From: an uncultured virus (IMG/VR IMGVR_UViG_2049941000_000050)
Taxonomy: Duplodnaviria; Heunggongvirae; Uroviricota; Caudoviricetes
Length of the DNA: 64,000 nt
Reading direction: 5' to 3' (one strand)
IMG/VR virus record: IMGVR_UViG_2049941000_000050
The notes under the pieces were generated by a model. That model was not told the origin of the DNA. It was given only the letters and a program-made list of their open reading frames with translations, and ran no database searches. Position numbers and translations under genes: made by a program. Shown piece after piece: positions 16,854 to 62,625 of the stretch; the first letter of the stretch is position 1, and each line of letters starts with the position of its first letter.

Positions 16854-18189
16854 TTAAAAGGTCGCATCTTCATGTTTCACAGTCCCATAGCTTATTCCGA
16901 ATTTCTTCTGAAAAGAGGCTAAGAACTCCGCACGCTTAACTTCCCTCTGTTCCGGAGGTACGTTTATCATATCCACTATTTCAAGCATATTCTTTGCCGC
17001 ACGAACGTCTCTGTCTTCAGATATACCGCATTTACAGGAAAATACCCGGTCGGACAGTTTTAGTTCATGTGCTTTTCCACATTTCATACATACCTTGCTG
17101 GTCGGAATAAACCTGTCTAAAACCACTACGTTCGGCAGTGTTTTAAGTTTGGATTTGATTCTTCCAAGACAGCTATGCTGAATCTGTTTTCCGAACAGAC
17201 CTTTGTGCCAGTTTTTCAACTGCTCGTCCTGAATGACGACGCGAGAGTACCTTTTCAATTTCGATACAATCCGATTCGCCATGTCGGTTCGTCTGTTGTT
17301 TATTTTCTGATAACACTTCCGAAGTTTTTTTCTGTTTCTCATCCGGTTGTTAGAACCCTTAACGCAATGGTTCATCCGTTTGCTTGCTTTTTTAAGGGAT
17401 TCAGTTTCTTCAACCGAACAATCCATGGTTTCACCTTCCGAGGTTGTCAGACTGTGCTTGATTCCAAAGTCGATACCTATCGACTTTTTGACTTTTTCTT
17501 TTTCTTTGAAATTGGTTTTTGGCGTGTATGTGGTCACGGCAACGAAAAACCCGTCCGGTTGGTTTAGTATTTTTACGTTAGCGTACTCGATTTCCCGCTC
17601 GTTTATGAACTGTTCCAACCCGTTTACGTGGACTTTCCTACTCACGCCCTACAATTTCATTCCGGATTTTCCCCTGAATGAGTAGGTACTTTTAAACTGC
17701 TTTAACCCCACGGACCTAACTTCTGAAACGAAACCCAATTCGCCGCGTTTTATGTTTTTTCTCTTTATGTTGCTAACAATCGATTTTAAGTTTGACTTCA
17801 CCTCGTCGACCACCTCTTGAATTTGGGACGCCGAAATGAACCTCAACAGCCTGTTTTCAAATTCCCCGGATTTTGTTTTAACCGGGATTTCGGTTTTCGA
17901 ATGGATTACCGGTAGTGTGTCCCAGTCTGCCTTTTTCGACTTTATGAGGCTGATGATATAATTTCTTACCCATTTTGCCTCAACAAAAATCATCTTTAGC
18001 TCTTCTTTCTGTTTTTTCGAGAGGCGGTTATTCTGTATTTTAACTTTGAATACGCGACAGACCTGAAATNNNNNNNNNNNNNNNNNNNNNNNNNNNNNNN
18101 NNNNNNNNNNNNNNNNNNNNNNNNNNNNNNNNNNNNNNNNNNNNNNNNNNNNNNNNNNNNNNNGTTGTATTCCACTTGGTTGTTGTCAT
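16854..18189 (-). CDS. tnpB: TnpB family nuclease with an in-frame TAG at 17649-17651
   Basis: ORFs 17649-17993 and 16854-17645 are in one frame (GMKL*GVSRK) and collinear with TnpB 733-2028 (KVKIQGIHG). GIDFGIK, IQDEQ, CMKC, DRDVRAAKN. N gap near the N-terminus. Confidence 0.85.
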
Positions 18190-18280: not shown

Positions 18281-18727
18281 ATGGTCAACAGAAACGAAGA
18301 GGTTTATTCCAGAAGAAACCACGCGAAACACCGTGTTTTTTACCATATTATATTTTCAACAAAATACAGAAGAAGATGTTTGGACGGAATAATGCCGGAA
18401 TTGAAAACCAGTTTCAAACGCGCCGAAAAAATGTCCAACGGTCTTTGGAAGATTGAGATGGTTGAAACGGATAAGGAAAAAATCGACCATGTTCATTTTT
18501 TGATTAGGGCCGTCCCACAAATTTCGCCCGGGGAAATAATCCACAAATTAAAACAATTTAGCACGTTTGACGTTTGGCATAATGAAAAATGTAGGGAAAT
18601 CTTATCCAAATTTTATTGGAAAAATAAAAAACATGGTCATATTCTTTGGACCCACGGATATTTTTGTTCTTCCGTGGGGGAAGCAAGTTCGGAAACCATA
18701 AGGAGATACATTTCATCACAAGGTTAA
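18281..18727 (+). CDS. tnpA: IS200/IS605 Y1 transposase
   Basis: YHIIFSTKYRR, HUH motif DHVHFL, W..GYFCSSVG....IRRYI..Q. Confidence 0.95.
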   Translation: MVNRNEEVYSRRNHAKHRVFYHIIFSTKYRRRCLDGIMPELKTSFKRAEKMSNGLWKIEMVETDKEKIDHVHFLIRAVPQISPGEIIHKLKQFSTFDVWHNEKCREILSKFYWKNKKHGHILWTHGYFCSSVGEASSETIRRYISSQG

Positions 18728-23746: not shown

Positions 23747-24151
23747 ATGAGACTTTGGCCTCTTTCGATTTTGAAACAGCTTCCCAGACAACAACTCCTC
23801 GGACAGCATAGGGAGTGTTGCGCGTTGAGGGGGCTCGGATGGGGAAAGAAGCACAGCGTGGTCGACTACGTTTTCCGGCACCCGCGTTTCTTTCTATACG
23901 AGTACCACAGTAAGATAATCTCGGAAATGGAGAGAAGGGGTTATAAAGCCGACCCGGTCTGGAAAGATTCATCCTACCGTGGGAAAAGAATCGGGAAAGA
24001 TTTTTCACTCGACACGTCTCTGAAATCGCCGTTCCCGGAGATATATCCCGAACACGACTTCTCGTATCTGAACGAGTGCGTCGAGAACCTAGAAAGAAAA
24101 GGGGTAAAAATTAACCGGGATTTTCTTGACAAAAATGGGGTTTCCGAATAA
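23747..24151 (+). CDS. pyrimidine-dimer DNA glycosylase-like protein (TIGR02328-type)
   Basis: MRLW...LPRQQLLGQHRECCALRG.GWGKKH..VDYVF. Confidence 0.85.
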   Translation: MRLWPLSILKQLPRQQLLGQHRECCALRGLGWGKKHSVVDYVFRHPRFFLYEYHSKIISEMERRGYKADPVWKDSSYRGKRIGKDFSLDTSLKSPFPEIYPEHDFSYLNECVENLERKGVKINRDFLDKNGVSE

Positions 24152-24161
24152 AATACCCGCC

Positions 24162-25310
24162 ATGAAAAACGAACTGTCAGTTTTAAGATTCATCAGTGAA
24201 CACCCGTCCAACTGGGAAAAGCTCCTATCCGAAAGCCCGTATTTTCTAAAAATAACCAGGGATTCCATTTTCGGGAAAAACCTAGTCATGTTGAAATACG
24301 ACCAACAGGAGTCCGATTTTTCGGAACCAATTGTGAGGGAGTGCCGCGGGCTGATTTTAGACGCGGACACGCTCGAGGTGGTAAGCTTCCCCTTCACGAA
24401 ATTCTTCAACTACGGGGAACAGCACGCGGTTGAAATCGACTGGAATACCGCCCACTGCGAGGAAAAAATAGACGGTTCGTTAATCAAGGTTGTCAATCTC
24501 GGGGAGAACCGTTTCCTAATCTCGACCAACGGGACAATAGACGCTTCCAAGTGCGAAATCACAAACATAGTAATGTCCCCGTTCAAAACCTACGGGGAAA
24601 TGGTTAAGGAAGGGTTCAAACACTACGGTCTGACCGAAAAGGATTTCCCGAGGCTGTTCAGACCCGGTTTCACCTACATGTTCGAGATAACATCCCCGTA
24701 CAACCACATCGTGGTGAAATACGATGAGACGAAGCTGTCTTTTTTGGGGATGAGAAACAACTCCACATTTGAGGAGACTTTTTTCCGGGATTCGGAACTT
24801 TCCGAAATTTTTAACACCCCGGAAATTTACCCCCTCAAGAATATCGACCAGTGCGTTTCCGCCGCCGAAAAACTCGGCGAGGACAAAGAAGGATTCGTTG
24901 TCTGCGACAGGAATTTTAACCGGATAAAGGTAAAGTCGCCGATGTACGTCGCCCTTTCTCACCTGAGGTGCAACGGTTCGCTCTCGCACGAGCGGGCTTT
25001 GGAAATCGTCAGGAAAAACGAAATCGGCGAAGTCGTCAATTATTTCCCGGAATTTGAGAAACCGCTTCAGACGGTCAAATCCGACTACGAAAGCCTTGTC
25101 TCGGACCTGGAAGCCAGGTGGGGGGATTTTCTCCGAAAAGGAAAGGGGCTTTCCGAGAGAAAAGACCGTGCGAAACTGGTCGGGGAAATTTTCAGGGAAC
25201 TTTTTTACGTCGGGTTTCTCCTTTTGGACGGGAAAACCGAATCGGTCAGAAACTGGGCGGAAACGGTTTCTTTGAAAAAACTGTGTAGAATCTTAGGGTA
25301 CAAGGAATAA
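24162..25310 (+). CDS. T4 Rnl1-like RNA ligase
   Basis: ECRGLI, KFFN, motif I EKIDGS, YMFE, EGFVV, RIKVK. Confidence 0.88.
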   Translation: MKNELSVLRFISEHPSNWEKLLSESPYFLKITRDSIFGKNLVMLKYDQQESDFSEPIVRECRGLILDADTLEVVSFPFTKFFNYGEQHAVEIDWNTAHCEEKIDGSLIKVVNLGENRFLISTNGTIDASKCEITNIVMSPFKTYGEMVKEGFKHYGLTEKDFPRLFRPGFTYMFEITSPYNHIVVKYDETKLSFLGMRNNSTFEETFFRDSELSEIFNTPEIYPLKNIDQCVSAAEKLGEDKEGFVVCDRNFNRIKVKSPMYVALSHLRCNGSLSHERALEIVRKNEIGEVVNYFPEFEKPLQTVKSDYESLVSDLEARWGDFLRKGKGLSERKDRAKLVGEIFRELFYVGFLLLDGKTESVRNWAETVSLKKLCRILGYKE

Positions 25311-26935: not shown

Positions 26936-27259
26936 TCATTTTACGGGAATCACCCCGATGTCGTCGATTTCCGAAGACCGGTCAAACATTTCGTCCGGCT
27001 CGTGTTTCACGAAACGCTCCCCATTCGGTTGGTACTCTCGCAGGCGTTCTATTTCAAAATCGATATACTGCTTCGCCTTTTCCAGGTCTTCAATCGGGTT
27101 CCATTTTTTCTCATACCTGGACAGATACTTAATCGCGGAGCCGATGTTGAAGTTACACCCCCAAGCCTCGATTACGCGGTAGGGTTCGTAGGTTTTGTCT
27201 CCCGTGTCGTAGTGGGAAGGGTGATGGACCATTTCATTTCCGTTCTTATTCTTTTTCAT
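26936..27259 (-). CDS. DUF3310 / T7 gp1.7-like nucleotide kinase-type protein
   Basis: VHHPSHY...F..G.AIKY..R..KK...EDLEKA..Y. Confidence 0.85.
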   Translation of the reverse strand: MKKNKNGNEMVHHPSHYDTGDKTYEPYRVIEAWGCNFNIGSAIKYLSRYEKKWNPIEDLEKAKQYIDFEIERLREYQPNGERFVKHEPDEMFDRSSEIDDIGVIPVK

Positions 27260-28211
27260 AATCTTTAATTTCCTCGTTTAAAATCGTCAGCAACGCGAAA
27301 AACTGTATTTCCGGGTCGATTACCTCGTTCATCTGGTAAATCGTGTCGCTCATTTTTAGAACCGTTTCCGGTTTTTTTACCATGCCGCCGTCGAGCGCGG
27401 CGTTGAATACCGCGCCGCCGAAAACTTTGTAGTCGTCGATTTTCGACCTGTTTTTCAGGTAGAACTCCCGCATCGAAAGAAGGTCTTTCGACGTTTTGAC
27501 GCGCTCGAGAAGTTCAGAGAGAAAATCGCGGTCGAAATTTTTGCACTGGGTTTCCGAGACAACCAATTCCCCGGAGGAACACGACGCCTGAAGAACGGAA
27601 ATTATTCTGCGGATGTCGGGATAGTTCGTCTTTATGACGTTTTCGACAAACTTCATCAGCGACTCTTTCCCGTATTTTATCCCCTTGGCATCGAGAATGT
27701 GCTTTATCCTTCTCAGGAGGTTTTTCCCGGTGAAACCGAGGCTGACCACCCCGAGCCTGGAGCGGACCGGCTCGATTACCTTCTCGACGTAGTTGCACGT
27801 TCCCACGAACATCGTGTCCGGGGATTCGCTGATTATGTTCCTGAGGGTTTTCTGGAAAGAGTTGTCCTGGGTTCCGGAAGCCGAATCCAGCTCGTCGAGG
27901 ATAACCATCTTCGGTCTCCCGTCGAACGCGGAAGAATCGCAGAAATCCTTCAGTTTCCCCTGCGCGGTGGAAACCGTGCCCTCGATGGCGCACGGGACAA
28001 AAAGGACGCTGGCGTTCAGTTCTCTCGCTAGAAGCTTGGCGATGGTGGTTTTTCCGATTCCCGCCGACCCGGCGAGAAGAACGTTGAAACGGCTTTTTGA
28101 CTCGACCAGGTTCTTGAAATAATCCGCCAGCTGGTCGGAAAGAACCATGTCCGAAATTTTTTTCGGCGCGAACTCCTCGGTCCAAAAATCGTTAAGCTCT
28201 GTCGTTTCCAT
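27246..28211 (-). CDS. clamp-loader AAA+ subunit (T4 gp44/RFC-like)
   Basis: WTEEFAP, GSAGIGKTT, ILDELD, SR, YPDIRR. Confidence 0.92.
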   Translation of the reverse strand: METTELNDFWTEEFAPKKISDMVLSDQLADYFKNLVESKSRFNVLLAGSAGIGKTTIAKLLARELNASVLFVPCAIEGTVSTAQGKLKDFCDSSAFDGRPKMVILDELDSASGTQDNSFQKTLRNIISESPDTMFVGTCNYVEKVIEPVRSRLGVVSLGFTGKNLLRRIKHILDAKGIKYGKESLMKFVENVIKTNYPDIRRIISVLQASCSSGELVVSETQCKNFDRDFLSELLERVKTSKDLLSMREFYLKNRSKIDDYKVFGGAVFNAALDGGMVKKPETVLKMSDTIYQMNEVIDPEIQFFALLTILNEEIKDYEKE

Positions 28212-31200
28212 CGGTTTCGTTCTTCTTCTCAATCTCGATTAGTTTCCGCATTTTCTCCGGGTCGAACTCCCCGACGTTAATTCCGGCTTCGAGAAGCGCG
28301 GAATATTTCATGTATTCGTCGGAAACGCGCCACTCGGCATCCGGAAGGACAAGATATTTTTCACAGTCGGAAATCGCCGCCATGGTGTCCGGGTCTTTTA
28401 TTTTCTTTCCCCCCTCGGAAACTACCGGATACCATTTCGAGTCTTCCTCGGAAAAAATGTCTGTTTCAATAAGCTTGATGTTTGGAAAATCATCTTCCGG
28501 GTACTCTTTCTCCATCGTGTCCAGTCCCGCGAAAAAAACCTCGTCGTAAGTCAGAGAGGTTTCATCTTTTCCCCCGTCAAGCGAAATCTCAAATTCCTCC
28601 GTAAAGATTTTCTTGTGCGAAGGAGCGAGTTTGAACTTTATTCTAAATTTGATGTTTTTCATGGTTTACCATATCATATTATATGAGCGAGGTATCTATG
28701 ATGCTTGACATTAGCAACTTTTTTGACGAAGACCGTCTCATTTCCGTACGACAGACCGTTCCATAGTTGGAAATCATTTTCGGAACCAGATATACGTATT
28801 CCGATTCGTCCTGTTCCTTTTTCCGCTTCTTCTCCCCCTTCTCAACCTCTTTCATATCCAGCCCGTTTTCCCCGACGAATCTGTTCAGGAACGAGCGGAC
28901 CTCCGACGCGTGTCTGGACTTGAATACCGTTTTTAAAACGGGATGTAGGTTGTGACGGGAATTCCCGGACAGAGTTTCGACTTTGAACCCAAAATCGAAA
29001 ATGGCTTCCTCCACATTCTGGAGGAAAGGAACATCATTCCTGTCACAAACCGTGGGAACCGACAATATAATAAACTCCCTCCGTTTTGTGGTAAAAAAGA
29101 ATTTCGTTAATTTTGGGGCGTCCATTACATTGTCCACGTCGTTGAATGCCGGGGACGTTTTCTCACGGCTCCTGTAATACGCCTCGATTCTTGCGATTCT
29201 GTCAAAATCCGCGAAGACAAAAAACAAGTTTCTGAACCTTTCGTCGTTGTCGTCAAAGAAGACCTTTCTGACCGCCGATACGGTTTTTTCAACAATGTCC
29301 GACCTCAGTCCCTCCCAGTTGTGATATCTCATAAAATCCGCCAATTCGAAAATCGTCAAACCGAACAGTTTTTCGGTGTTCATAGCCTCGGCTATTTTTT
29401 CCCGTGCGTCGGTTAGGACCCGCTGTCTTTCCCAGAGGGTGGATTCGATGCTTGCGTTGATTTCCCAAAGCTTTTTCTCCAAGTCGAATATCACGCTCTT
29501 TTTGGTATCAGTCATTGCAAAAAATCTCCCACTTAAATTCCCTGTTAGACAGTCTGACCGAAAATTTGACGGTTCCGCCGCACAGACCCTCGGTTTCGAT
29601 AACCGCGTCGTACGGTTTATGACTGGGGTATTCCGGTATACCATCCGCCAACAGGTCAAACATGTCATCTTCAATTTCACGTGTGATATCCGGGAGCGAA
29701 GAGAGGTCGCCGTGGTCGTTTAGGGCTTTGAATATCGTCTCGTGGCTGACAGAACAAACTCCCACTTTCCCACGGACGGTTTCCAATTCAACGACTTCGT
29801 TTCTGAAGTCGAGCGCGTATATCGTCAGTTTACAATCGACTAGCATATCCTCTCCACAAACTCGTATGTTGAACAATTGACAGCGTGGTCGTAATCCGCG
29901 ACCAATGCGCGTACTGCCTTTCTCAAGACCCCCATGTCGGTCGTCGAGCAGAACTCGTGGTAGTAGTCATTTTTGTGGACGTAAACCCTGTATCGGAAAA
30001 ACGGGTCGTACTCGAACGCCTCCGTTTTACTGGGCTTAAGCTTGAACGAGATAGATACCGTGAACTGTTTGTTTTCGGGGGTCAGGAACAGGTATTCGGT
30101 TTCCGAGACGTTCAGAGTTTCGGACGAGGTTATGTTGGTGTTGAAGTAAAACCCGACCAGCATCAGATTTTTGGAAAGATTTCTGTCCTTCTTTGAAAAC
30201 ATTATCGGCAGAATTTCCCCGAGCCGTTCGGAAACTTTTTCCCGGGATGATTTCACCGTAAGGTTTATTGTTTTATAAGTCTCCCTCGCCGTGTCGAAAA
30301 GCGTCAATTTCGGGACGAATTTTTCAGACATACTTCCACTCCCCCCTTTCACTATTAACCTTTACCCATTTCATACACCCGAAAATCGGCTCCGTCTCCA
30401 AAACTAAGGAAAACATGGTATCGAGACTGAATAAGCTCAAACCGAACACCTTTTTCAGCATCGAATACCTCGAGTTGAAAAACGTCATGTCAAACTGCGG
30501 CATCTCGGATAAATCCCCGCTTATGTTCGCGTTAAAGGCGGATTTTACAAACTCCTCCCGTTTTTTGGAGCGCGAAATGTCCGCTACCCCGCTGATGACT
30601 CGGACCGACGGGGTTCCGTCCGCGTTGAACCCGCTTATGGTCAAAGTCATCGCTATTTTATTACAACTCTTATTCTTCATCAAAGTGTTCTCCGTTTTCT
30701 CTCAAGACCTTATTCTTTCTTAGTTTGTTTCTCGTCTCAAAAAACAGGTTGGTCGACTCAGAGTCGATAATCCCAAACCCCCAACAGAGGGACAAAAATT
30801 TGTCGTACCATTTCTCACCGCCGAAGTTTCTCAGTATAAACCCGGCAAGCGAGGAAGCGAAATCCCGGCTGTGGTCCGTCAAATTCTCGTAATACGCGTA
30901 ATAAACCGCTTCGCCGAACTCCGTCTTCTTTCCCGGAATGTCCCACAGTTCGCGGTGGTCGTTAAGAAAAGAAAACAGCTTCCGCGTGAAATCGCCGTTG
31001 TCGATGCTCGCCGCGAAACCGAGAAGCTGAACGAGATACCCAATCCCCCAGGATTCGAAATTCTCCTTCAGCGGGAAATTCTCGGGGACGCCGCACACCG
31101 AGAGTTTCAGCTTTATTTCCGGGAACCTCATCTTCTTGTTGTAATCGAGAATTTTCAGTATTTCCGACAACGGTCCGTCCGGGTCGGCGTACTCGAGCGA

Positions 31201-31274: not shown

Positions 31275-32117
31275 TCAAGTTGTTTTCTGGCAGGATTCCA
31301 TCTTTTCTAGAATCTCCGACATTCTAATCGGCTTGTAGCCGATTCTCTCAACACAGGCGCAGAAGGTGTTCCTTGTGAAATCGCGGTACATCTCCATGTT
31401 GTGGACATGCCCGTAGATGTTCGCGTAAACGTCCCCGGTCCGAATCCATTGTAGCGGGGCGTGGCTCATTATGAAGAAATTCGAGACTATCATCGGCTTG
31501 TCGTAAACGCGGTGGAAACCGATGTTGTAATAATCTCTCATTTTAAGTCGGTCGTGGTTTCCCATGACAAGGTCGATTTTGCCGTTCAATCTCGAGAACA
31601 CCGTTTCCAGGCGTTTTCTGTTCCCGAACGAAAAGTCCCCGAGGTGAATAACCCTGTCGTTGGCCCCGACCACGGAGTTCCAGTTCTCAATCAGCCTCTC
31701 GTTCATTTCTTCAACGTCCCTGAACGGGCGGTCGCAGTACTTTATGATGTTGCCGTGGGAAAAGTGCGTGTCCGAAATGACGAAAAGATTCCCGACGTTC
31801 CTCGGGTCGCGGTTAAAATTGGTCAGGACAAAAACCACCGACTTGGCGACTTGGGAAACGTCGTCGACCGGTCGGACAAGGTTGTTCGGGAACATTTTCA
31901 TAAACCCACTGTCGTCCGAAATCACGGCGAACGAGCCGATATCCGAGTTGTCGTTCAGAAACTCCCTCACCTCGCCGACCCCAAATTTGTCAATCGACAT
32001 GCTGGTTTTCTTCCCGAGCGGAAGCACAAAATAAAAATCTTCTAACCCCTCTTTCTCGAGAAGCGGAATCAAAGACTCGATTAATCTGTCATTGTCGCTG
32101 AAAATAACGTTTCTCAT
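31275..32117 (-). CDS. calcineurin-like metallophosphoesterase
   Basis: SDTHFSH, HLGD, GNHD, SH.P, GHVH. Confidence 0.9.
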   Translation of the reverse strand: MRNVIFSDNDRLIESLIPLLEKEGLEDFYFVLPLGKKTSMSIDKFGVGEVREFLNDNSDIGSFAVISDDSGFMKMFPNNLVRPVDDVSQVAKSVVFVLTNFNRDPRNVGNLFVISDTHFSHGNIIKYCDRPFRDVEEMNERLIENWNSVVGANDRVIHLGDFSFGNRKRLETVFSRLNGKIDLVMGNHDRLKMRDYYNIGFHRVYDKPMIVSNFFIMSHAPLQWIRTGDVYANIYGHVHNMEMYRDFTRNTFCACVERIGYKPIRMSEILEKMESCQKTT

Positions 32118-33818: not shown

Positions 33819-35173
33819 GGCGAAGGAAACGCAACCTTCTTCAGAGGTTGCGATGAATTCGCCATCTCCTTTCAATATATTATACCACTTGAAAATATTT
33901 TGTAACGTTGCTCATTCATAATGAAGTTTCTCAGTAAAATTGTGTAAATAATATTGTAATGAGAACATACAAGGTCAAATTGGAATTCGAGAACCAGAAT
34001 GTCAAGGACTTCTGGAAGAAACGCATTTGCCTTGTACAAGATTGCTACAACTACGCTTCCAACATCACCTTCAACGAGAAGGTTCAACTTGGTCTGAAGT
34101 CAGTTCATAGTAGACTATATTATGAACTCAGAGGCAGGTTCAAGGAACTTCCTTCTCAGATATGCATTCAAGTTGAACGGGCATTGATTGCGAACTACAA
34201 GTCGGTTCGTTCCAATGGACACCACTTGGACAAGCCAATTCAGATGAAGCATCCTGCAATCCAGCTCGACAAAAGGTTGTTCAGCAATCTTACAAGAGAG
34301 TCCTTCAAGTTGAGCAATGGAGATGGCAATCACAGGTCAGAAGTCAGATTCGTGACATATCCCAAGTTCGACCAATTGGCTGAGATGTACAAAATGTGCG
34401 ACCCAAAGCTGACCTACGATGTTGAAACTGACGTATTCCATGCTTGCGTTCCATTCCTCGACATCCCACCAACTCCACACGAAGACAGTTATATTGGAGT
34501 TGACCTTGGCGTGAAGAGATTGGCTACGCTTTCTGATGGCACATCTTACTGCGACAAGGAATACCTTGCGAATAGGAGAAGGATTCGACACAACAAGAGG
34601 ATGCTTCAATCCAAGAAGAAACACTCTCATTCTGCAAGGACGAAGTTGAAGAAGCTTCGTCGAAAGGAAGCCAATGTCTCCAAGAACACGTGCCACCATC
34701 TCGCCAATGCAATTCTGAAGCATCGTGGTTCTGTGGTGGTGATGGAGGACTTGACGAAAATCAAGCAAAGTACATCAAAGACGAAAGAAGGGTTCAAGAG
34801 AAAGCGTCACAACAACATGCTCTCTCAAGTTCAGTTCTATTTGATAAGACAGATTTTGACCTACAAGGCACTACTCAGGGGAAAGCGAGTAGAAACAGTT
34901 TCGCCCGAATACACATCCAGACAAGATTGCAGATATGGGTCTGGAGTTGGATGTAAACGTCAAGGGTGTAGGTTCTATACCAAAGATGGAATGGTGTTCG
35001 ATGCAGATTGGAATGCATCTATAAACATCATGAATCGGTATAAACACTCCACTTCGTTTGAGTTGCCTATTGATGGCAAGTTGAACTTGGTGAACAGGTT
35101 GCTTCAACCAACCAATAGTTCCGTGAGCAATCACAGAGCAATCTCAACGGTCTTCAGCCGTTGAGTAAGTTGA
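33819..35173 (+). mobile_element. TnpB-only IS200/IS605-like element 2
   Basis: Left hairpin motif 33819-33863 shared with element 1; right-end hairpin CTCAACGG-TCTTCAG-CCGTTGAG then ..TTGA. Confidence 0.72.
33959..35164 (+). CDS. tnpB: TnpB family RNA-guided nuclease (401 aa)
   Basis: GVDLG, VMEDL, YTSR.DC, DADWNASIN. Confidence 0.92.
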   Translation: MRTYKVKLEFENQNVKDFWKKRICLVQDCYNYASNITFNEKVQLGLKSVHSRLYYELRGRFKELPSQICIQVERALIANYKSVRSNGHHLDKPIQMKHPAIQLDKRLFSNLTRESFKLSNGDGNHRSEVRFVTYPKFDQLAEMYKMCDPKLTYDVETDVFHACVPFLDIPPTPHEDSYIGVDLGVKRLATLSDGTSYCDKEYLANRRRIRHNKRMLQSKKKHSHSARTKLKKLRRKEANVSKNTCHHLANAILKHRGSVVVMEDLTKIKQSTSKTKEGFKRKRHNNMLSQVQFYLIRQILTYKALLRGKRVETVSPEYTSRQDCRYGSGVGCKRQGCRFYTKDGMVFDADWNASINIMNRYKHSTSFELPIDGKLNLVNRLLQPTNSSVSNHRAISTVFSR

Positions 35174-36197: not shown

Positions 36198-37634
36198 TTA
36201 TACGGCTTTCTCCCCCACTTTTTCAGATTCTAACTCTTCCATCGCCGTTTTGTAGCACTTTTTCATAGCCACGGCGCAACATTTCTTCGTGAAACCGTAT
36301 CCCTGCGCGTTGTCGACGACTGAGCCGTCTTTCTTGTTGACGATTACCCACCGCTCGTTTTCGTTCCCGTCCTTGTCTTTCAAAGCCCTTTTCTCAACGT
36401 CCAAATCCTCCGGGGTTATTCCCTCGGGAAGAGTCTTGGCAAATTTCTCGTCATTCTTTTTGTAACGCTTCGCCTCTTCGCCGCCCCTCCAGATGTTTCT
36501 GTTGCGACCACATTTCTCGATACTGATGTTATCCCGTTTAGTCAGTTCTCCCGATTCCTCTCGCTTTTTAAGCCGTTCGTTGCGCCAATGGTGGGGATAT
36601 GAACCCTGTCTCGGCTTATACTCCAGCTTCTTCGGGAACGATATGTCGTTTCGGTCCTTGAGGTGCTCCAAATCCTCGTCCGACCACACACCGGCTTTGC
36701 GACCGATTCCGATTGCTCCGTTCACGTCGGCGTTTATGAGCTTCCTCTTTCCGGTCCTCGGGTCGATTACCGACGATTCAAACAGTCCGCGCTCGACCCG
36801 CCTTCCGAGAAACTTGTGGTCCTTCCTCGCGTCCCTGCCTTTCTTCCACATCAAAAGCTCCTCTTTTGCCGCGTGGTCGGTCTTCGAGGTATAAGATTCT
36901 TCAATCTCTTCGAGAAGAATCCCGGCATCCTCGCATTTGTACTTGAGTTTTTCAATCAGTTTTTTGTGGGGCATCTGCGCAAATTTCTGGTTGTTCTTTT
37001 TGCCCATGTTCGATTCATTTTTCCAGTCCTTGTTGTACCCGACAACAATTTTTCCGATGTCGTTGTCTAAAGCCCACTTGACGATTCTTATCGAGACGTA
37101 ATCTAACTCGGTGTTAATCTTGTTGCCGCATTTCCGGTAGAGGTTCCGGATTCTCTCGGACGTTTTCCGCTCGCCTTTGTACTGGTGGTCGAGAACGCTC
37201 TTGAACTCGGCTATCAGCCTGTTCCGGTTCTGGAGAATCGACAGAACGGTCCCCCCGTCGATAAACATCGATTGGTCGATTTTTGTCCCGTTCGTGACGA
37301 GTGTGCAGAGCCTTTTCACACCCAAGTCAATCGAAAGAACGTTGTTTGGGTTGCATGGGTTGGTTTTGGGAATTTCTTTTTCGTAAGAGTATACGATTGC
37401 GACTTTATCCCCGCAATGGATAAGCTTAACGCTGGACTTTCTTCTTACGAACCAATTAAAATTCATAATATCCGGGACCCGCAAAACCAACGAGCCGCCG
37501 ACCGTAATCGTCCTTTTTTCGTAATTTATCCCGCTGTAATGACCGCTACCCTGGAAAAACTGAATGGTTGCGTAACTGTTAAAGATATTGTTCTCTCTGT
37601 CGTGTTTGTACTGCGGCGGGCGGGGCAACCCGTT
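36198..37634 (-). CDS. TnpB/Cas12-like RuvC protein with ~140-aa C-terminal extension; N-terminus lost in gap
   Basis: SIDLGVKRL, IVVGYNKDWK (rearranged RuvC-II type), EESYTSK, INADVNGA, then an extension including DNAQGYGF. No IS-end hairpin at the 3' end. Confidence 0.8.
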   Translation of the reverse strand, partial: NGLPRPPQYKHDRENNIFNSYATIQFFQGSGHYSGINYEKRTITVGGSLVLRVPDIMNFNWFVRRKSSVKLIHCGDKVAIVYSYEKEIPKTNPCNPNNVLSIDLGVKRLCTLVTNGTKIDQSMFIDGGTVLSILQNRNRLIAEFKSVLDHQYKGERKTSERIRNLYRKCGNKINTELDYVSIRIVKWALDNDIGKIVVGYNKDWKNESNMGKKNNQKFAQMPHKKLIEKLKYKCEDAGILLEEIEESYTSKTDHAAKEELLMWKKGRDARKDHKFLGRRVERGLFESSVIDPRTGKRKLINADVNGAIGIGRKAGVWSDEDLEHLKDRNDISFPKKLEYKPRQGSYPHHWRNERLKKREESGELTKRDNISIEKCGRNRNIWRGGEEAKRYKKNDEKFAKTLPEGITPEDLDVEKRALKDKDGNENERWVIVNKKDGSVVDNAQGYGFTKKCCAVAMKKCYKTAMEELESEKVGEKAV

Positions 37635-37879
37635 NNNNNNNNNNCAAAAATAGGAACTTCCTTTGCCTTTTAAACCGTTCACGAGATATATTATATGGAA
37701 AAAACTTCCGGAAAGAAAAAATTTTTCAGAAAAAAATTTCACGTTTTTTAAAGAAAAAGCTTGACTTTTCCGGACGTTTTTGATATAATTCGCGAAATTT
37801 TCGCCCTTCCTCTTTCAAGAAGGGTCTGAATTATACCAAAAACCCGTCAAAAAGTCAAGCTTTTTTTGGAGGAAAAACG

Positions 37880-38173
37880 TTAGTTTTTTTGAAACTTCCC
37901 GTTTCCCAGTTTAATATTATACACGTTTCTTTTGAGAAATTCTTCGGTGACGATGTTTTCCAGCTGTTTGTCCACCTCGGCTTTTGTCTGGAAGTTGTAT
38001 TTGATTGTCTTTTCGAAATTTTCCAAACCCAGTTTTCTGATGTCCCTGAGAAGAATTGGATTGTGCCCGAGATAACCGTCGTTTGGATTGTCCGTGGAGT
38101 GTTTCCCGACGTAGATTTTCCCGGTCTTTTTGTTTTTGACTTCGAAAATAATGTTGTTCTTCAGTTCCGGCAT
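37880..38173 (-). CDS. short Seg-like GIY-YIG domain protein
   Basis: IIFEV.N...GKIYVGKH..DGYLG...YNIKLG. Confidence 0.75.
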   Translation of the reverse strand: MPELKNNIIFEVKNKKTGKIYVGKHSTDNPNDGYLGHNPILLRDIRKLGLENFEKTIKYNFQTKAEVDKQLENIVTEEFLKRNVYNIKLGNGKFQKN

Positions 38174-38309
38174 ATTTTTTCTTCCTTCCTGAAATAGTTA
38201 CCCGAATAAAAAAAATCCCCCGGTATTTTTATTGGGGGATTTTAATTTTAAAATATAATTTTTAATATTATACGGATTGTTTTTAAAAAATTCCTCGGTG
38301 AGAAGCTCT

Positions 38310-39133
38310 TTAAACTTTTTTTCCATTCTCTCTTTCGTTAATATATTTTATCCAATAAATTCTGCCCAATTTCCATCCCCATCTTTCGTAATCAGACAAA
38401 TCTGTTTTGAGAATAAATTTCGATTCTTTTCCATTGTTCACCCAACAGCGAATGTGAGCTGGGTTAGACTCGTCAATTTTTTTAGGTTCAACGGCTCCCA
38501 TTCTCCACCCATTATTGAGATATTCATCAAGAAGATGTTTTTTAATCTATTTTTTTAATTTTAATTCGTTATTATGAATCCATACTGTATTATAATTTCC
38601 ATTTTTTCGCCTTTTAAGGATATTTTATTCTTTTCCCGTATTTTTTGTTTGGTTTCTTCCGTGTGATGTTTTCCTTTGAAATGATATGGATTTAAATGAA
38701 GTTTACAATTATAGAATCTATCTGGGTCGGTAGCCCATATCCGTTTTAACGCTTCGCTTATTTTCTTTCCCTTTTCTTTTCTATAATTTTCATTCGACCA
38801 GTTTAATTCTGCGGCCCTTTTAGTTCCCATATTTCGTATATCTGTGAAATTATTCTATTGACCGCCGACCCTTACATTATATGTATCTTCTCTAGAGACA
38901 AATTCTTCGTTTACTATTTCTCTTTCCTTTTGGTTCATTTCTTCAAATGAGTCGAAATCAAATAGTGTTTCCCGTTTGAAGTTTTTTCTTCCTATGATTT
39001 CAATGTCTTTAAGGAGGTCTTTTCCACTTCCGAGATATTCATCGTTTGGATTATATGTTTGATGTTGGCCGATATAGATTTTTCCATTTATTAGATTTGT
39101 AGTCTGATAAATGATGTAATGCTTTTTTTCCAT
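38310..39133 (-). CDS. Seg-like GIY-YIG homing endonuclease with NUMOD3; in-frame TAG and likely C-terminal frameshifts
   Basis: IIYQTTN..KIYIGQH. TAG at 38855-38857 joins it in frame to 38561-38830 (FKGKHHTEETKQKI). W..N..GW..G motifs follow in shifted frames. Confidence 0.72.
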
Positions 39134-39263
39134 AGTGATTTTACCTTTTTGTTAGAGAAGTCTTAGCGGAGACTTCAAAAATATTTACTGTAAAAAAAAA
39201 TCGACCACGGCTATGGAACCGTGGTCGATAATATCTTATTAGGCCGCTACCTAACAAGATTGA

Positions 39264-39612
39264 TGGTGGAGGTGAAGACGCTCTGCCCGTCTTGTCCGAT
39301 AAGCATTGGATTCGCACCCTCGTTCACGAGCTTAGCCGATAGTGGTTTTCCGCCGTTTACCACCGGCATCTTTTCGGCGGAATTTGTTTCCGTGTGTCTT
39401 GACCGGTACCGGAAACGTCTTCCGGTCAGAACTTGCCGTATGAAGGAAATCCGAAGGCTGTCAAGTTTCGCCGACGGTTCCTCGGCGGTTAAGCCGCCAT
39501 TGCCAACGAATAGTCGTCGTTTAGTTTTTTTGGCTTGTTTTTAGGAAGAACAAAGCCGTCTTCCGCTCGCGGATACGTCCAATATCCCACCGTCGAATTC
39601 TAATACACCCCC
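39264..39612 (-). ncRNA. ssrA: tmRNA; tag (A)DDYSLAMAA*
   Basis: 5' GGGGGTG..TTCGAC, 3' CACCTCC-ACCA with G3:U70; tag ORF at 39518-39489. Confidence 0.92.
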
Positions 39613-39845: not shown

Positions 39846-39965
39846 GGCGGAGCGTATTTTTTCGGGTCGCTCTATCCAGTTGAGCTACGGAGCGGAAACC
39901 GTTCCGGGCGGATTCGAACCGCCAACTTACCCGTTTACCTTATTAAAATAGGAACGCTCTATGCC
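39846..39965 (-). ncRNA. YrlA-like Y RNA (circularly permuted tRNA mimic)
   Basis: Closing stem GGC-ATA-GAGCGT/ACGCTC-C-GCC; T arm GGCGG-TTCGAAT-CCGCC; closed acceptor-like stem; D arm GCTC-AACTGGATA-GAGC; TATAAT just upstream. Confidence 0.75.
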
Positions 39966-40014: not shown

Positions 40015-40199
40015 GTTTCATTTTCCACGTACGTGTGAGTTGCAACTGCGGAAAACCGGGGTTTTCACCCCGCTCTGACCCATTTCTGAGCCGGTTCTGT
40101 CCCCGTTTCCGGGAACATGGCGTGGAAATCCGCCTCTATCTGGTCGGTTTTGGTGAAATTTGTTAAAAATCCCGTCAAAAAAACCTTCCAGAGTACTTT
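40015..40199 (-). CRISPR. single degenerate repeat (40015-40046) with a second copy of the leader
   Basis: GTTGCAACTCACACGTACGTGGAAAATGAAAC; 40047-40199 aligns with 35855-36007. Confidence 0.8.
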
Positions 40200-40245
40200 G
40201 AAGGGGCGGCGAGTTGAACCAGTTCCTCCATATCCGCATTCAAAA

Positions 40246-40335
40246 TGGTTGCAGACGGACGAGTCGCACGTCTGGACACTCTCGCGTCCTCCTGGTTATG
40301 GGCCAGGCAAGGGCACTCTCCCTTTCACGTCTGCG
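40246..40335 (-). tRNA. atypical tRNA, anticodon CAT, 8/4 fold, long variable arm, C1:A mismatch
   Basis: CGCAGACG/CGTCTGCA-ACCA; CCTGG-CCCATAA-CCAGG; V arm GGACGC-GAGA-GTGTCC; T arm GACG-TGCGACT-CGTC. Confidence 0.75.
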
Positions 40336-40343
40336 TTCTAAAC

Positions 40344-40419
40344 TGGTCTCCCAGAGAGGATTCCAACCTCCGACCCACGGCTTAGAAGGCCGTTGCTCTA
40401 TGCGCTGAGCCACTGGGAG
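40344..40419 (-). tRNA. tRNA-Arg(TCT)
   Basis: CTCCCAG/CTGGGAG-ACCA; ACGGC-CTTCTAA-GCCGT; T loop TTGGAAT. Confidence 0.9.
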
Positions 40420-40426
40420 CCGAAAA

Positions 40427-40503
40427 TGGTGCGCCCGGGGGGATTTGAACCCTCAGCCTTGCGGATAGGAGCCGCATTCTCTGTCCAGTTGAGATACGGG
40501 CGC
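40427..40503 (-). tRNA. tRNA-Arg(CCT)
   Basis: GCGCCCG/CGGGCGC-ACCA; TGCGG-CTCCTAT-CCGCA; T loop TTCAAAT. Confidence 0.92.
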
Positions 40504-40704
40504 GGAATGGTCCGGGGGATTTTTGCCGAGAGGAGAAAGGAGAAACCCTCTCTTCCCCCGGACCGGGTTGGTATGGTATGGTATGGTATGTTGGCAAAGA
40601 GCTTTTCGGGAGATTCGGAACCCCTTCTGTCCCCCAAAACGCCGACCATTCTATGGCAGACCTTTGTTTTTGTCAAGAATGAAATCGGCTTTTTTCGAAA
40701 TTTT

Positions 40705-43700
40705 TCAGTCTACCGGGTTTTTCTTCAGCTTTTTCGCGCTCCGGCGGGAAATTTCCCGCTTCGCGGCGTACCCGTACGAGTATGTGTTCGCGTAGGAAGC
40801 CAGTTCCTCGTTCGAGAGTCGGCGGACGGTTCTCGAAACGTTCGTGTCGTAGCTCTTGGCGAACTTTACCGGGCGGATTACCTTCGTTTTCGCTTTCTTC
40901 ATGGCATGCTACCTTTCTTGGTTCGTTTTCCTGTTTTTCCCTTAAAACGCCGACAATCTTATCAAAACCCGCCGGGTTTGTCAACAAAAAACGGCGTCTT
41001 TTTCGGTTTTTTTTTCAGAAAACGACCCTTTTCGTCCTGTTCTTTTTGCTTCTCGTTATTTCCTGCAAATGCCATTTCCCGCTCTCAAGGGAGAGCAGTC
41101 CCCCCTTTTTTCTCCCGAAAAGCTCTTCGGGAAACGGGTGGGCGGCGGTTTTTTCCCTCTCGAGGAACTCCCGGGGGGTGACAGTCCCCCCGGAAAGCTT
41201 TCCCGAAAGCCACCTTTTCGCGTCGCAGACCGTGAAAAGGCGTTCCTTGAACATCGGGAGGTCGGTTTCCGCGCCGAGCATTCCCGTGCCGAAAATTTCG
41301 GCTGGCTGGAACTCCGACAGTCCCCCGATTATTTTTTCCCACTCTTCCGGGGTTTCCGTTCTCGCCAGTATCCCACGGAACAGCGTTTTTTTGTTGGCGG
41401 TCGTCCTCAGGTAGAGAATCAGGCAGACCCTCTTTCCGTCGGAAACCATAGCCGACTTTACGAGCGAGGTCTCACCGCTTGGGCGGACGGGTCTTCCCCT
41501 TCCCATCAGACCCTCCGTTTTTTACGAGACCCCCTTTTGGGGAAAGTTCCGAGAAACGGCGGTTCAGCTCCTCGATTTCCTTCCGGAGGGTGTCGATGGT
41601 GTCGAGGAGTTTTTCGCGGTCGGAGTTCCGCTTCTCTGCGCGTTTTTTGGCGATTTCCCGCTCGGCGACAACCGTACCGTCGACAACGTCCTGGACCCTC
41701 GCCTTCCGGACGGCGGACCTGATGAAATTGATGAAGCCCTTCGGCTTCACCGTCCCCATGCCGTCCAGCTTGCAGACGAGCCTTTTCGCGATTGCGTACA
41801 CCAGCCCGATTTCCTTCGCGGACTCGGACGCGGTCAGCATTTTCCTCTTCGAGCCGTCCGAGAGGACGACCTCCTTCTCGACGAGCGAGATTTCGTCGCC
41901 CATGTCCGGGTCGTTTTTAACGACGGAGGTGGTCCCGTCGACGAAAGTCACCACCGTGTGCAACACGCCCTTCCCGTTTTCCTTCACGGAGGTGTGGTAT
42001 CTAACGGAAGAGATTTTCGGCGCGAAGGTGTTCGTCGCGACCAGAGAGTCGATTACGCTCTGGCGGGCTTCCTCTTTGCACATCAGCTTTCCGTGGCAGT
42101 CCCTGCTAAACAGATTTTCCATAGTTTTTTATTCCTTCCTTATTACAGTCCCTCAATTGAGAACAGACAATTGAGAACAGACCCTCAAGTTTCCGGCAGA
42201 CCCTCGAATTTTTACTAGACCCCCCGGAAAACTTTCCTTTCCGGTCACTCGTCCCCCAAATCGTCCTCTTCGTAAAGTTCTTCGTCGTCCCCGAAGCCGT
42301 CCCCATACGTGTCGAACGCCTCGTCCAGCATCTCAATCGCGTCGTTGATTTTCTCGGTTATTCTCTCCCGCTCGTCTTCCGGAATCTGTTCGAGACCGGA
42401 AATCTCGTTCGCGGCGGCGGACAGCGTTTCGTTCAGTTCTTCAATCGTCATTCCCATTGTGTTGTTCCTTTCTTTCGTTTTTTGAAATCCGAGCCATATT
42501 ATACGGGTCAATCCCGGTTCGCGGCGATTTTTTCCAAAAAAAGCAGTGCCGACGAAATTCCGGCGGCGAGATAGCAAATCAGCATAAACCAAATCGGCCA
42601 AGCGCACGGAAGGGTCATAAGAACCCAAGAGAACTTGCTCCAATGGCACATCGGTTCGGCGTTCGGTTGGAACGCACGGCAAGCAACGATGACCGCCGAA
42701 AGAATGAACCCGCCCGCTTGTCTCGGCAACTGTAATTTCATGGCATTTTCTCCAAATTAAACAAAACCCGCTAATCGTTTTAAGCAACCGTTTAACTCAC
42801 AACGGCGGGAAATGTACCACATAGCGGAAGGTGTTGTCAAGATGGAAATTGCGAAAATTTTGATTTTTTTAATTTGTCAAGAATATTTTTAAACTGAATC
42901 GACTTTATATATAAGGAATGCTAATGAAAAAATTTCAAGAAAATCGCTTTTTAAAATTGACAAAATCCGTTCTTTTTGATATAATTCGCGGTCAATCTTT
43001 GGGACGGGTCCGCGAATTATAACAAATCCGTTTCAAATTGTCAATATGTTTTTTAANNNNNNNNNNATTCGGAACAGGTCCGCGAATTATAACAAATCCG
43101 TTTCAAATTGTCAATATGTTTTTTAAAAAATTTCGCGTTTTTTTTTGTATTTGATAATATTATACGGGATTCTTCCGGATTTTCTCCGAAAAAGTTCGAG
43201 GTAAATAATCCAGTAAAGAAGGATTTCACCAATGGTAATCAAATTAGAAGGTCGAAAAGGTTTCATTTTCCAAACACTTCTCCAAGGACTGAAGGAAGCC
43301 CACAAAGCCGGAACCGGCGGATACAAGGTGGAAGTTCAGAAGAAGGACGAGGTTGACTCGAAATTCCTCAACGCGGTCAAGAAAGAGTATTCCGCGAAAT
43401 TCATCGATGACGCGGACTATCTCATAAAGGTCGCAATCCCGAAGGAAGAACCCGCTCCGGAAGAACCTACTCCGGAAGAACCCGTTACCGAATCGAAAAA
43501 CAGTGAGAACGGGGAAGAGGGAAGTCGCGGAGACTCCCCGAACGGGGAAACCGAAGAGACTTCCAAACTGAAGGAAACCATCATCGAGACGGTTCAGCGC
43601 AGGCTGTTCATCCCCGAAACCGACAAGGTCGAGTTCTTCGACCTGAACGATTTCAAGAAGGAAGGTTACGCGGTCGGTTTCTTCAAGGTGTCTTTGGGCA

Positions 43701-60624: not shown

Positions 60625-62625
60625 ATGGCAATCGATAACAAAGAACTCGCGACGGTGAAAAAGCCGAACCAGGTCGAGTATATCACGAAGGAACTGCTCA
60701 TAGAGCGGTTGAGAGAGATAAAAAAATGTAGAGAGAATATATAGTACTTTGCGGAAAGTTATTATAGAATATAGTCGCTTGACCAAGGTCTCCACATCAT
60801 AAAACTCTATGATGTTCAGAAAGACCTTTTATCCTTTATGAAAGATAATAACCGGTGTGTCGTTTTGGCGGCGCGGCAAAGTTCCAAATCCACAACGTAT
60901 TGCATTTATCTTCTCTGGCTAACATGTTTCCATTCTGATAAAAAGGTGCTGATGTTGGCGCAAAACGAAAATACAGCGTTGGACCTTTTGGGAAGGATTC
61001 GACTGGGATACGAATATCTTCCATCATGGTTGAAACCCGGATGTGTGGAATTTAACAAGTCGTCAATTCTTCTAGCCAACCGTTCTAGTATAAAAGCGAT
61101 GGCTTCTGGAAGTGATTCAACACGGGGAACCTCCGCGAATTTACTCGTACTCGATGAGTTTGCATTTTTAAATTCTTCCGTTTCTGAAAAATTATTCACT
61201 TCCGTTTACCCAGTTGTCTCGTCGTCGAAAAACGGAAAGGTCATAATCGTTTCCACCCCGAACGGAAAAAATAACCTCTACTATGATATCTGGAGAATGG
61301 CGAACAACAAAAACGACCCGGACAATATCGACGGGTGGAAACCGTTCCGGATGGACTGGTGGCAGGTTCCGGGAAGGGACGAGAAGTGGAAGCAGGCGCA
61401 AATAGCCGCCATCGGGAAAACCAGGTTCGCCCAGGAATTCGGGAACGAGTTCCTCGACGACGTCCAGACGACGAAACTCATTTCCGACGAGGTCATAGAC
61501 CGCCACAGAATCCAGCTGACCGAGTTCAAGCGGAAGGGGATAAACGGAGGGAAAAACCTTTTCGTCGACTCGAAGGACAAAAAGAAGCAGTACACATTCA
61601 CGATGTACTACCAATTCGACCCGGACAGAACGTACCTCGCTTCCGCCGACGTGGCGGAAGGCGTCGGGAAGGACTCGTCTGTCCTTTACGTTTGGGACGT
61701 GACCGACACCTCCGACATAAAGATGTGTTTGAAATTCTCAGACAACCAGGTCTCCATCCTCGAGTTCGCCTACGTGACGACAAAGCTCCTCGAGCTTTAC
61801 TGCAACCCGTACCTTGCGTGCGAGTCGAACGGAATCGGTCTCGGGTACATAGAACAGCTGAGGGTCACCTACGGGTACGACAACCTGGTCAGGATGAACA
61901 AGAACGGCGGGTGCGGAATCGACAGCCACGTCACGCTAAAGTCGAAAGCTTGTCTCTGGTTCAGGGACATGATGACGACCGTCGGGTTCGGGTTCGAGCT
62001 GTATGACCCCGAGCTTCTGGACGAGTTCCCATCGTTCGTGAAGAAGGACACCGTCCAGCACAACATATACGCGGCGGTGAAGGGGAGCAACGACGACCAC
62101 ATCATGGCGATGATTTGGATGTGCTGGATTCTTAACCCGGCGAATGTCGAGAACTACTACAAGGTCACGGGGACCTTCACCGCCGGGACCAACCAGCTGT
62201 TCGCGAAAGGTCTGAAACCGCTTTTCCCGTACACCCCGTCGGAAATAGAAAACGCGCTGTCGAACAGCGTCGTGAATGATTTCCAGATATATAGGGAGAG
62301 GAACGAGTCTCTGTGCGACGGGAAAAAGCCGGTGGGAAGCGGCGGAAAGAGCCAGACCGGGAAAAGGTTCCAGGAAAAAGTCGTCCTCTCCGAGAGAGAG
62401 CTAATCGATATGATGCGGAGGAAAACAGCCGACGGAGACGACGGCGGGTATTCGCTCCAGGGGGGAGGAGGTTCCGGGGGGTTCTATTTCGCCTCGACCG
62501 GAAACGACATCGACTACAGAAACGGTTTCGACCCGGACAAACTAAACGTCATCTGGGAGGACGAGTTCTTCACCGGGGAAGAACCCGAGAGCGACAATAT
62601 TTTCGGAATCTTCGATTACGAGTGA
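60625..62625 (+). CDS. terL: terminase large subunit (T4 gp17-like); true start 60625 with TAGs at 60742 and 60772
   Basis: AAGGA RBS, EIKKC.ENI*YFAESYYRI*SLD.G, ARQSSKST, LDEFAF, VSTPNG, ADVAEGVG.D, CESNG, DDHIMA. Confidence 0.93.

Follow-up and report, generated by a model that had tools for sequence, protein, structure and literature searches.

The feature under study, tRNA(CAU), is a 90-nt tRNA gene on the minus strand of an uncultured rumen phage, located in a window (the whole stretch of DNA analysed) of 64 kb (Table 1). It is the third gene of a tRNA array, after two tRNA-Arg genes, and all three genes encode CCA. It is followed downstream, on the same strand, by an ORF of 73 codons, a permuted tRNA mimic of Y-RNA-like type, a tmRNA and a terminator-like hairpin. 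The adjacent tRNA-Arg(UCU) has an unusual elbow of its own, with a T loop UUGGAAU that places G at the C56 site and a D loop without GG. The leader that runs from the promoter to the first tRNA holds four copies of the unit CATAC, and contigs of runs X5, X8 and X9 are missing 10 bases at 40569, equal to two such units.

Table 1. Features of the tRNA array and of the surrounding window (positions are those of the window).
Feature	Position	Strand	Basis or detail
90-nt tRNA-like gene, anticodon CAU, initiator-type marks, 8/4 with long variable arm	40246..40335	-	Fold, ARAGORN -ps90, covariance model R1
Acceptor 5' strand, RNA positions 1-8; C1 unpaired, facing A	40328..40335	-	Fold and pairing probabilities
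Connector UGA, 5' of the D arm	40325-40327	-	Fold
D arm: 5 pairs (A:U, A:U, G:C, G:C, G:C), A·G, tetraloop GAGU	40309..40324	-	Fold
Anticodon arm CCUGG-CCCAUAA-CCAGG	40291..40307	-	Exact 17-mer in 35 IMG/VR loci
Anticodon CAU	40298-40300	-	Anticodon loop CCCAUAA
Variable arm: 6-bp stem (one G·U), loop GAGA	40274..40289	-	Fold; pairing probabilities 0.998-0.999
Single unpaired A on either side of the variable arm	40290, 40273	-	Fold
T arm: 4-bp stem, loop UGCGACU, G at the usual U55 place	40258..40272	-	Fold and comparison with relatives
Acceptor 3' strand (40250-40257), discriminator A (40249), encoded CCA (40246-40248)	40246..40257	-	Sequence and fold
tRNA-Arg(UCU), directly upstream, 8-nt spacer, CCA encoded	40344..40419	-	ARAGORN; Rfam 60.7 bits
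tRNA-Arg(CCU), first gene of the array, CCA encoded	40427..40503	-	ARAGORN; Rfam 60.1 bits
CATAC repeats of the leader	~40569-40595	-
Sigma-70-like promoter TTGACA-17-TAGAAT, 11/12, ~140 nt upstream of the first tRNA	40648..40676	-	Consensus match only
Permuted tRNA-like element	39865-39956	-	Rfam YrlA 36.2 bits
tmRNA	39264-39612	-	Rfam 75.6 bits, full length
Terminator-like hairpin, 13 pairs, after the tmRNA	39200-39229
Three short ORFs of one homing-endonuclease family	37880-39133	-	phrog_314, SegE GIY-YIG, NUMOD3
TnpB-like / TnpA ORFs	733-2028 (-), 16854-17645 (-), 33959-35164 (+), 36198-37742 (-), 18281-18727 (+)		Pfam/PHROGs
Calcineurin-like phosphoesterase ORF	31275-32117	-
Clamp-loader-like AAA+ protein	27246-28232
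T4-type RNA ligase 1; tRNA-repair enzyme family	24126-25310	+	PF09511, E 1.2e-21
Pyrimidine-dimer glycosylase, denV-like, directly before the RNA ligase	23747-24151	+	PF03013
T4-type large terminase	60838-62625		PF03237

A single cloverleaf is predicted for the RNA, the minimum-free-energy (MFE) structure being identical to the centroid structure. Its energy of -39.2 kcal/mol compares with a mean of -26.7 kcal/mol over 200 shuffles (z -4.02), none of which was as stable. The observation is confirmed, and its setting marks it as more than chance: a spacer of 8 nt separates the gene from tRNA-Arg(UCU), all members of the three-gene array encode CCA, and a promoter match (11 of 12 consensus positions) lies upstream of the array. 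The fold contains what an earlier, sequence-only reading had described: the 8-position acceptor with C1 opposite A, the 4-bp T stem with its loop UGCGACU, the 6-bp variable arm and the CCA end. In RNA numbering, positions 2-8 pair with 79-85, and C1 faces A86. The anticodon stem, flanked by a G and an A that are unable to pair, has five pairs and carries a 7-nt loop, CCCAUAA, with C at position 33. All 26 Watson-Crick or G·U pairs are intact, and mismatches are confined to 1:72 and the A·G at the base of the D loop. The D stem had been called extended; its exact form is five Watson-Crick pairs with the A·G closing the GAGU tetraloop.

The 8/4 allo-tRNA-like frame proposed in that reading also stands. 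The eighth acceptor pair, G8:C79, has a probability of 0.955 and contributes 1.9 kcal/mol, values that, like the 8/4 split itself, rest on one sequence. Reading the RNA as 7/5 requires an A:C pair and places a G at position 8; in the 8/4 form, the UG that follows the eighth pair corresponds to U8-R9 of relatives. The suggested ARAGORN check gave a divided answer: the default run did not call the gene, and at a 90% threshold the sole extra call was a tRNA-Met(cat) at exactly 40335-40246, drawn as 7/5 with an A:C mismatch. Searches with the Rfam tRNA and tRNA-Sec models (E<=10) returned no match to the gene. A long D stem with a tetraloop is a tRNA-Sec feature. Contigs from two other studies span the region at ~94-95% identity: one from run X6 covers 40198-40339 with 8 differences, and one from run X8 covers 40073-40399 with 17. 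The surrounding region is present in bovine gut metagenome runs of several studies; there was no RNA run among the sequencing runs listed as containing it, and the neighbouring ORFs 40018-40239 and 41472-42122, used as queries, recovered no loci.

Outside the anticodon arm, the marks of an initiator can be read directly from the sequence as C1·A72, G2:C71, C3:G70, A73 and A11:U24. The first two pairs of the D stem are both A:U, so purine11:pyrimidine24 holds under either numbering. Bacterial initiators carry three consecutive G:C pairs, 29:41, 30:40 and 31:39, next to the anticodon loop. In tRNA(CAU) the corresponding pairs are U29:A41, G30:C40 and G31:C39, two of the classical three, and initiator marks are present at every checkable site except this third G:C pair. 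The CAU anticodon is sufficient for MetRS, and the formyltransferase recognises the 1-72 mismatch and R11:Y24 (PMC9976931). The same text gives the requirements of the enzymes for long-armed tRNAs as A73 with the G18G19/U55 elbow for LeuRS, A73 with U35 for TyrRS, and G73 for serine (PMC9976931). Set against these, tRNA(CAU) has A73 but a D loop without GG and G at 55, which leaves the leucine set incomplete; it has the long arm but discriminator A, which leaves the serine set incomplete; and it has A73 but A, not U, at position 35, which does the same for tyrosine.

The exact 17-nt anticodon arm is found in 35 IMG/VR loci, 26 of which carry an ARAGORN tRNA-Met call over the match. A scan of genomes for the arm gave at least 121 loci; among the matches listed, 25 are ARAGORN tRNA-Met genes, and most of the other 96 look like chance matches. 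The single-sequence covariance model R1 added three full-length matches (L013, L016 and L032) and aligns over the full length of initiator-type tRNA-Met genes, with scores of 43-28 bits. As the anticodon arm was the criterion for selecting these sets, identity in the arm is by construction. Fifty tRNAs sharing the arm, among the matches listed, were parsed, namely the tRNA(CAU) of the window and 49 others. Many of them start and finish like classical initiators, and 44 of the 50 have a non-Watson-Crick 1:72 pair, in keeping with the description of C1 facing A86 as an initiator-type first mismatch. All 49 others, among the matches listed, are 7/5. The search for phage homologs succeeded for the anticodon arm and yielded no second 8/4 CAU copy: the exact 45-nt pattern of the gene had no match in IMG/VR, and blastn of the gene and of its 1.4-kb region against cultured phages matched only tRNA-Arg or the anticodon arm. 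R1 run over four viral records gave no match, in a first look that also missed the known match in the L031 record, so that this blank is uninformative. Separately, R1 scored 31.1 bits on an 84-nt GC-rich stretch of a Pusillimonas MAG contig (L143 255-338, minus strand), which shares the anticodon arm and forms a 7-pair hairpin at the variable position; ARAGORN did not call it, and the match may be due to chance.

Two of the oddities of tRNA(CAU), C33 and the T loop with G55, recur in cellular genomes. Patescibacteria/CPR labels stand on 16 of the 25 genomic tRNA-Met matches, among the matches listed; we take WWE3, Falkowbacteria, Paceibacterota and Saccharibacteria to be Patescibacteria. In each of the five Patescibacteria-type genomes searched, a C33 tRNA was the only tRNA with a GGCYCATAACC arm (two U33 matches to the arm pattern are not tRNAs), and in four of the five the T loop of this tRNA starts with UGCA, with G at 55. 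The T loop and the D loop vary together: counted by eye in the table of 50 parsed tRNAs, among the matches listed, each of the 14 rows with G55, that of the window among them, has a D loop without GG and with AGU in its place, and GG is present in 34 of the 36 rows with U55. Patescibacteria-labelled MAGs supply initiator-type tRNA-Met genes that combine C33, G55 and a D loop without GG (L063, L064, L069, L081, L086, L095, L109, L121 and L131).

Since Patescibacteria genomes have both C33 and the G55 T loop in their sole initiator-type tRNA, the two features look like traits of a lineage, neither phage inventions nor phage escape mutations. That sole initiator-type tRNA also has the same arm, so the three-G:C rule is relaxed in those lineages. 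The D-loop/T-loop pair of tRNA(CAU) looks like a coherent alternative elbow used by working initiators, and it may hint at the host. A literature search outside the subscription journals found no paper on C33/G55 initiators of Patescibacteria; such initiators bear on which features of tRNA are true universals.

For the frame, R1 gave a 32.5-bit match to a phage tRNA-Ser(GCU) in L017, a score to which the anticodon arm contributed nothing. This tRNA-Ser has an 8-pair acceptor, a 6-pair D stem around the tetraloop AGGU and a 4-pair T stem; its variable stem has six pairs, with one nucleotide on each side (1 nt, 6 bp, 1 nt). tRNA(CAU) shares its layout, the 6+4 geometry of the D arm and the geometry of the variable arm, with a near-identical T stem and the same seventh and eighth acceptor pairs. 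The D arms differ in detail, with five pairs and A·G around GAGU in tRNA(CAU) and six pairs around AGGU in the tRNA-Ser. Two (8/4) tRNA-Ser genes, each with eight acceptor pairs and six D-stem pairs, lie at L017 23-110 (+) and L011 434-524 (-). The clusters that hold them each contain a tRNA-Met with the C33 arm as well, so the two building blocks are found side by side among phage tRNA genes.

The 8/4 architecture is on record for tRNAs of Ser, His, Cys and Sec-like identity. Mukai et al. 2017 (PMC5389517), whose subjects include (8/4) tRNA-Ser and tRNA-His of phages, describe the (8/4) tRNA-Ser layout for phages and rumen bacteria and the 8/4 frame as functional in E. coli translation for allo-tRNAs, and their supplementary table of 8/4 and 9/3 tRNAs has no CAU or AUG entry. 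With the (8/4) allo-tRNAs as that text presents them, tRNA(CAU) shares a 12-bp acceptor branch split 8/4, a long variable arm, and an origin in phage tRNA clusters and rumen samples, and its D arm of ~6 pairs with a tetraloop may correspond to theirs. It differs from them in its discriminator, which is A where allo-tRNAs have G or U (serine identity), and in its anticodon stem of five pairs, which is longer in allo-tRNAs (PMC5389517). It also has a 1:72 mismatch, and it carries initiator identity marks instead of serine ones. With tRNA-fMet, in turn, it shares CAU in a 7-nt loop ending in AUAA, C1·A72, G2:C71, C3:G70, A73, CCA, purine11:pyrimidine24, G30:C40 and G31:C39, the rules for these marks coming in part from PMC9976931. 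It departs from tRNA-fMet in U29:A41, in C33 for U33, in G55, in a D loop without GG, in a 6-bp variable arm (a 16-nt hairpin) for a 5-nt loop, in 8/4 for 7/5, and in a longer D stem with a tetraloop. By strict tests, tRNA(CAU) is a member of neither the tRNA-fMet class nor the (8/4) allo-tRNA class.

Long variable arms on initiator-type tRNAs were found in other designs. A metagenome scan for the arm, a long gap and the T loop returned L041, with a 5-pair extra stem, U1·U72 and an encoded CCA, together with three copies of the L031 design (L042-44); blastn with the L041 tRNA as query was uninformative. An IMG/VR scan for a long 3' half bounded by classical initiator ends gave six loci, five of them long-armed initiator-type tRNAs (L167, L168, L169, L171 and L172), with L171 on the same contig as L031; the remaining locus, L170, is an ordinary tRNA with a chance downstream match. 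In the Bacteroides phage crAss001, gene t23 is 87 nt long and annotated only as tRNA-Met. Read from 5720 (5720-5807), it shows C1·A72 and A73, has two G:C pairs next to the loop and forms an extra hairpin of five pairs. The designs of crAss001 t23, L041, L031/L042-44, L167, L168, L169 and L172 all share with tRNA(CAU) the 1:72 mismatch, A73, the two G:C pairs and a hairpin in the variable region. Unlike tRNA(CAU), however, these seven are 7/5 and have ordinary D arms, and their extra hairpins are shorter, with 3-5 pairs, and unrelated in sequence, which leaves tRNA(CAU) as the only 8/4 form among the long-armed initiator-type designs found. Aligned by MAFFT/RNAalifold, eight long-armed initiator-type tRNAs yielded the four standard helices with compensatory changes; their heterogeneous variable arms could not be aligned. 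No paper on long-armed or 8/4 initiator-type tRNAs was found in the literature covered by the search, that is, outside the subscription journals.

Taken together, the gene is real and probably functional, and its product is a tRNA(CAU) of the initiator type built on a frame like that of (8/4) allo-tRNA-Ser. To the further proposal that it is a phage-encoded replacement initiator, charged with methionine and formylatable, we give an even chance. Three roles had been put forward for it from the sequence: a nuclease-resistant alternative initiator, a mischarged AUG reader and a decoy. The alternative initiator fits best, on account of the marks outside the anticodon and the identity of the arm. 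The qualifier 'nuclease-resistant' loses part of its basis, however, because C33 and the odd T loop occur in Patescibacteria initiators. The gene would be transcribed with the two tRNA-Arg genes from the candidate sigma-70-like promoter, recognised by its consensus match, and the RNA would be excised like the neighbouring tRNAs. Host MetRS would load it with methionine, because CAU is the main determinant and A73 fits, and the formyltransferase would formylate the product because of C1·A72, G2:C71, C3:G70 and A11:U24. The two G:C pairs adjoining the anticodon loop would then serve its use in the ribosomal P site. Methionine with formylation is our best guess because the molecule carries what MetRS and the formyltransferase read and lacks part of what LeuRS, TyrRS and SerRS need. 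The body would have been rebuilt on the (8/4), long-variable-arm frame of a phage tRNA-Ser, keeping the acceptor/T stack at the 12 bp measured by the translation machinery and altering the shape of the elbow and of the core. No MetRS, formyltransferase or TilS was found among the 87 ORFs of the window with Pfam and PHROGs. Only 64 kb of the phage are visible, so an ordinary initiator or Met tRNA may lie elsewhere in it.

Other explanations have to be weighed against this replacement initiator. The RNA might be a stable, tRNA-shaped decoy or regulator that stays outside translation and binds or distracts a factor acting on initiator tRNA, such as a nuclease, a modification enzyme or a turnover enzyme. 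A non-standard shape missed by default ARAGORN and by Rfam would suit such a role, as would a place in the same strand-run as the tmRNA and a Y-RNA-like tRNA mimic, the latter scoring below the YrlA gathering threshold; Mukai et al. suggest that some allo-tRNAs act outside translation (PMC5389517). What speaks against a decoy, and makes us think it unlikely, is that tRNA(CAU) keeps the features of a translating tRNA: the 7-nt anticodon loop, the 12-bp acceptor/T stack, CCA, A73 and the formylation marks. A role-less origin carries similarly little weight for us. Recombination may have joined a Met or initiator anticodon arm to an (8/4) tRNA-Ser body in a tRNA cluster visited by homing endonucleases, leaving a decaying hybrid. 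The mosaic likeness, with an initiator-type arm on the frame, T stem and seventh and eighth acceptor pairs of the L017 tRNA-Ser, is what a graft would leave; broken GIY-YIG/NUMOD3 endonuclease ORFs lie nearby, and the design was found only once (no IMG/VR pattern match, and a singleton among the parsed tRNAs). Yet every helix is free of defects, and the region is retained in the contigs of two other studies. Moreover, C1·A, C3:G70, A73 and A11:U24 are foreign to the serine frame, and a single graft would not account for them.

A mischarged AUG reader is slightly less attractive, and we regard it as improbable. Here SerRS, drawn by the long arm, would charge the tRNA, and serine would be inserted at AUG or at the start of proteins. 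The 1:72 mismatch disfavours use in elongation and counts against such a reader. The geometry of the variable arm is the same as in the (8/4) tRNA-Ser of L017, so that binding by SerRS is conceivable, and allo-tRNAs with non-serine anticodons are described as inserting serine in E. coli, but there only the G73 variant did so, and the discriminator here is A (PMC5389517). Moreover, SerRS recognises G73 together with the long arm (PMC7609411), and CAU makes a tRNA a MetRS substrate (PMC9976931); the 8/4 and 9/3 table mentioned above offers no CAU/AUG precedent. Judged by published identity rules (PMC9976931), mischarging by SerRS, LeuRS or TyrRS is disfavoured by A73, A35 and the missing G18G19/U55 elbow. 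Finally, C34 might be converted to lysidine by TilS and the tRNA charged by IleRS, giving an AUA-reading tRNA-Ile2 like many phage tRNAs annotated as Met. T4-like Enterobacter phages do carry a CAU tRNA, annotated Ile or Met, beside a tRNA-Arg. TilS determinants lie in the acceptor stem. The 1:72 mismatch, the loop-adjacent G:C pairs and the arm identical to that of initiators all indicate an initiator instead, and tRNA-Ile2 is in our judgement very improbable.

For the replacement initiator, the most likely benefit would be that the phage has an initiator of its own during infection, one poorly recognised by the tRNA-targeting enzymes of the host or of rivals. Phage tRNAs reportedly counter PARIS and retron defences (PMC11464382, PMC11555353). 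VapC-type toxins cleave initiator tRNA, and phage tRNAs have been proposed, from substitutions in their anticodon loops, to evade such enzymes (PMC10264068). tRNA(CAU) shares with the tRNAs described there the principle of an altered phage copy of a tRNA that hosts attack, but its loop change, C33, is common to cellular initiators, and its phage-specific changes are architectural. Escape from a tRNA-targeting defence is plausible, because toxins of this kind cleave initiator tRNA, because phage tRNAs are proposed evaders and because this phage has a tRNA-repair-type ligase. The RNA ligase 1, the denV-like glycosylase and the calcineurin-like phosphoesterase may form a tRNA-repair tool kit. A bolder version is tentative, and we would call it possible and not probable: the phage would have transferred all the initiator determinants to a scaffold of tRNA-Ser type that initiator-targeting nucleases, and perhaps host quality control, do not recognise. 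If true, this would be a naturally evolved orthogonal initiator, with which translation could continue to start under nuclease attack.

Initiator tRNA is among the most conserved of RNAs, and in textbooks long variable arms are reserved for Leu, Ser and Tyr. The (8/4) tRNA-Ser and the initiator-type tRNA-Met are both known kinds, and tRNA(CAU) is a new form related to the two. If it works, MetRS, the formyltransferase, IF2 and the P site would have to tolerate a rebuilt core, and the molecule could serve in synthetic biology as a naturally occurring model for an orthogonal initiator. The notion of phage tRNAs as an anti-defence measure would also widen, from point changes in the anticodon loop to remodelling of the whole body.

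The source of the window is, by its gene content, identified as a divergent T4-like phage. Its large terminase is at best 50% identical to any in IMG/VR and at most 35% to those of cultured phages, so the lineage is poorly sampled. The genetic code was taken as standard; stop-codon recoding was considered and set aside, as greedy ORF tiling covered 81% under code 11 and 85-89% with any one stop freed, which is no clear signal. Around the RNA genes, the permuted tRNA-like element follows the order T arm, acceptor-like hairpin, D arm; its YrlA score lies below the gathering score of 69, its tRNA score is 17.9 bits and its fold has a z of -1.45, and no Ro60/TROVE protein was found among the 87 ORFs of the window with Pfam and PHROGs. 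The tmRNA was not called by ARAGORN and contains a tag-like frame, read by eye, that ends ...YSLAMAA-stop. Beyond the hairpin that follows it, the three short endonuclease ORFs are parts of one family and look like a broken homing endonuclease gene beside the RNA gene cluster. Mobile elements are also present, with four TnpB-like ORFs (OrfB_IS605 and a Cas12f1-like TNB domain) and one IS200-type TnpA within the 64 kb.
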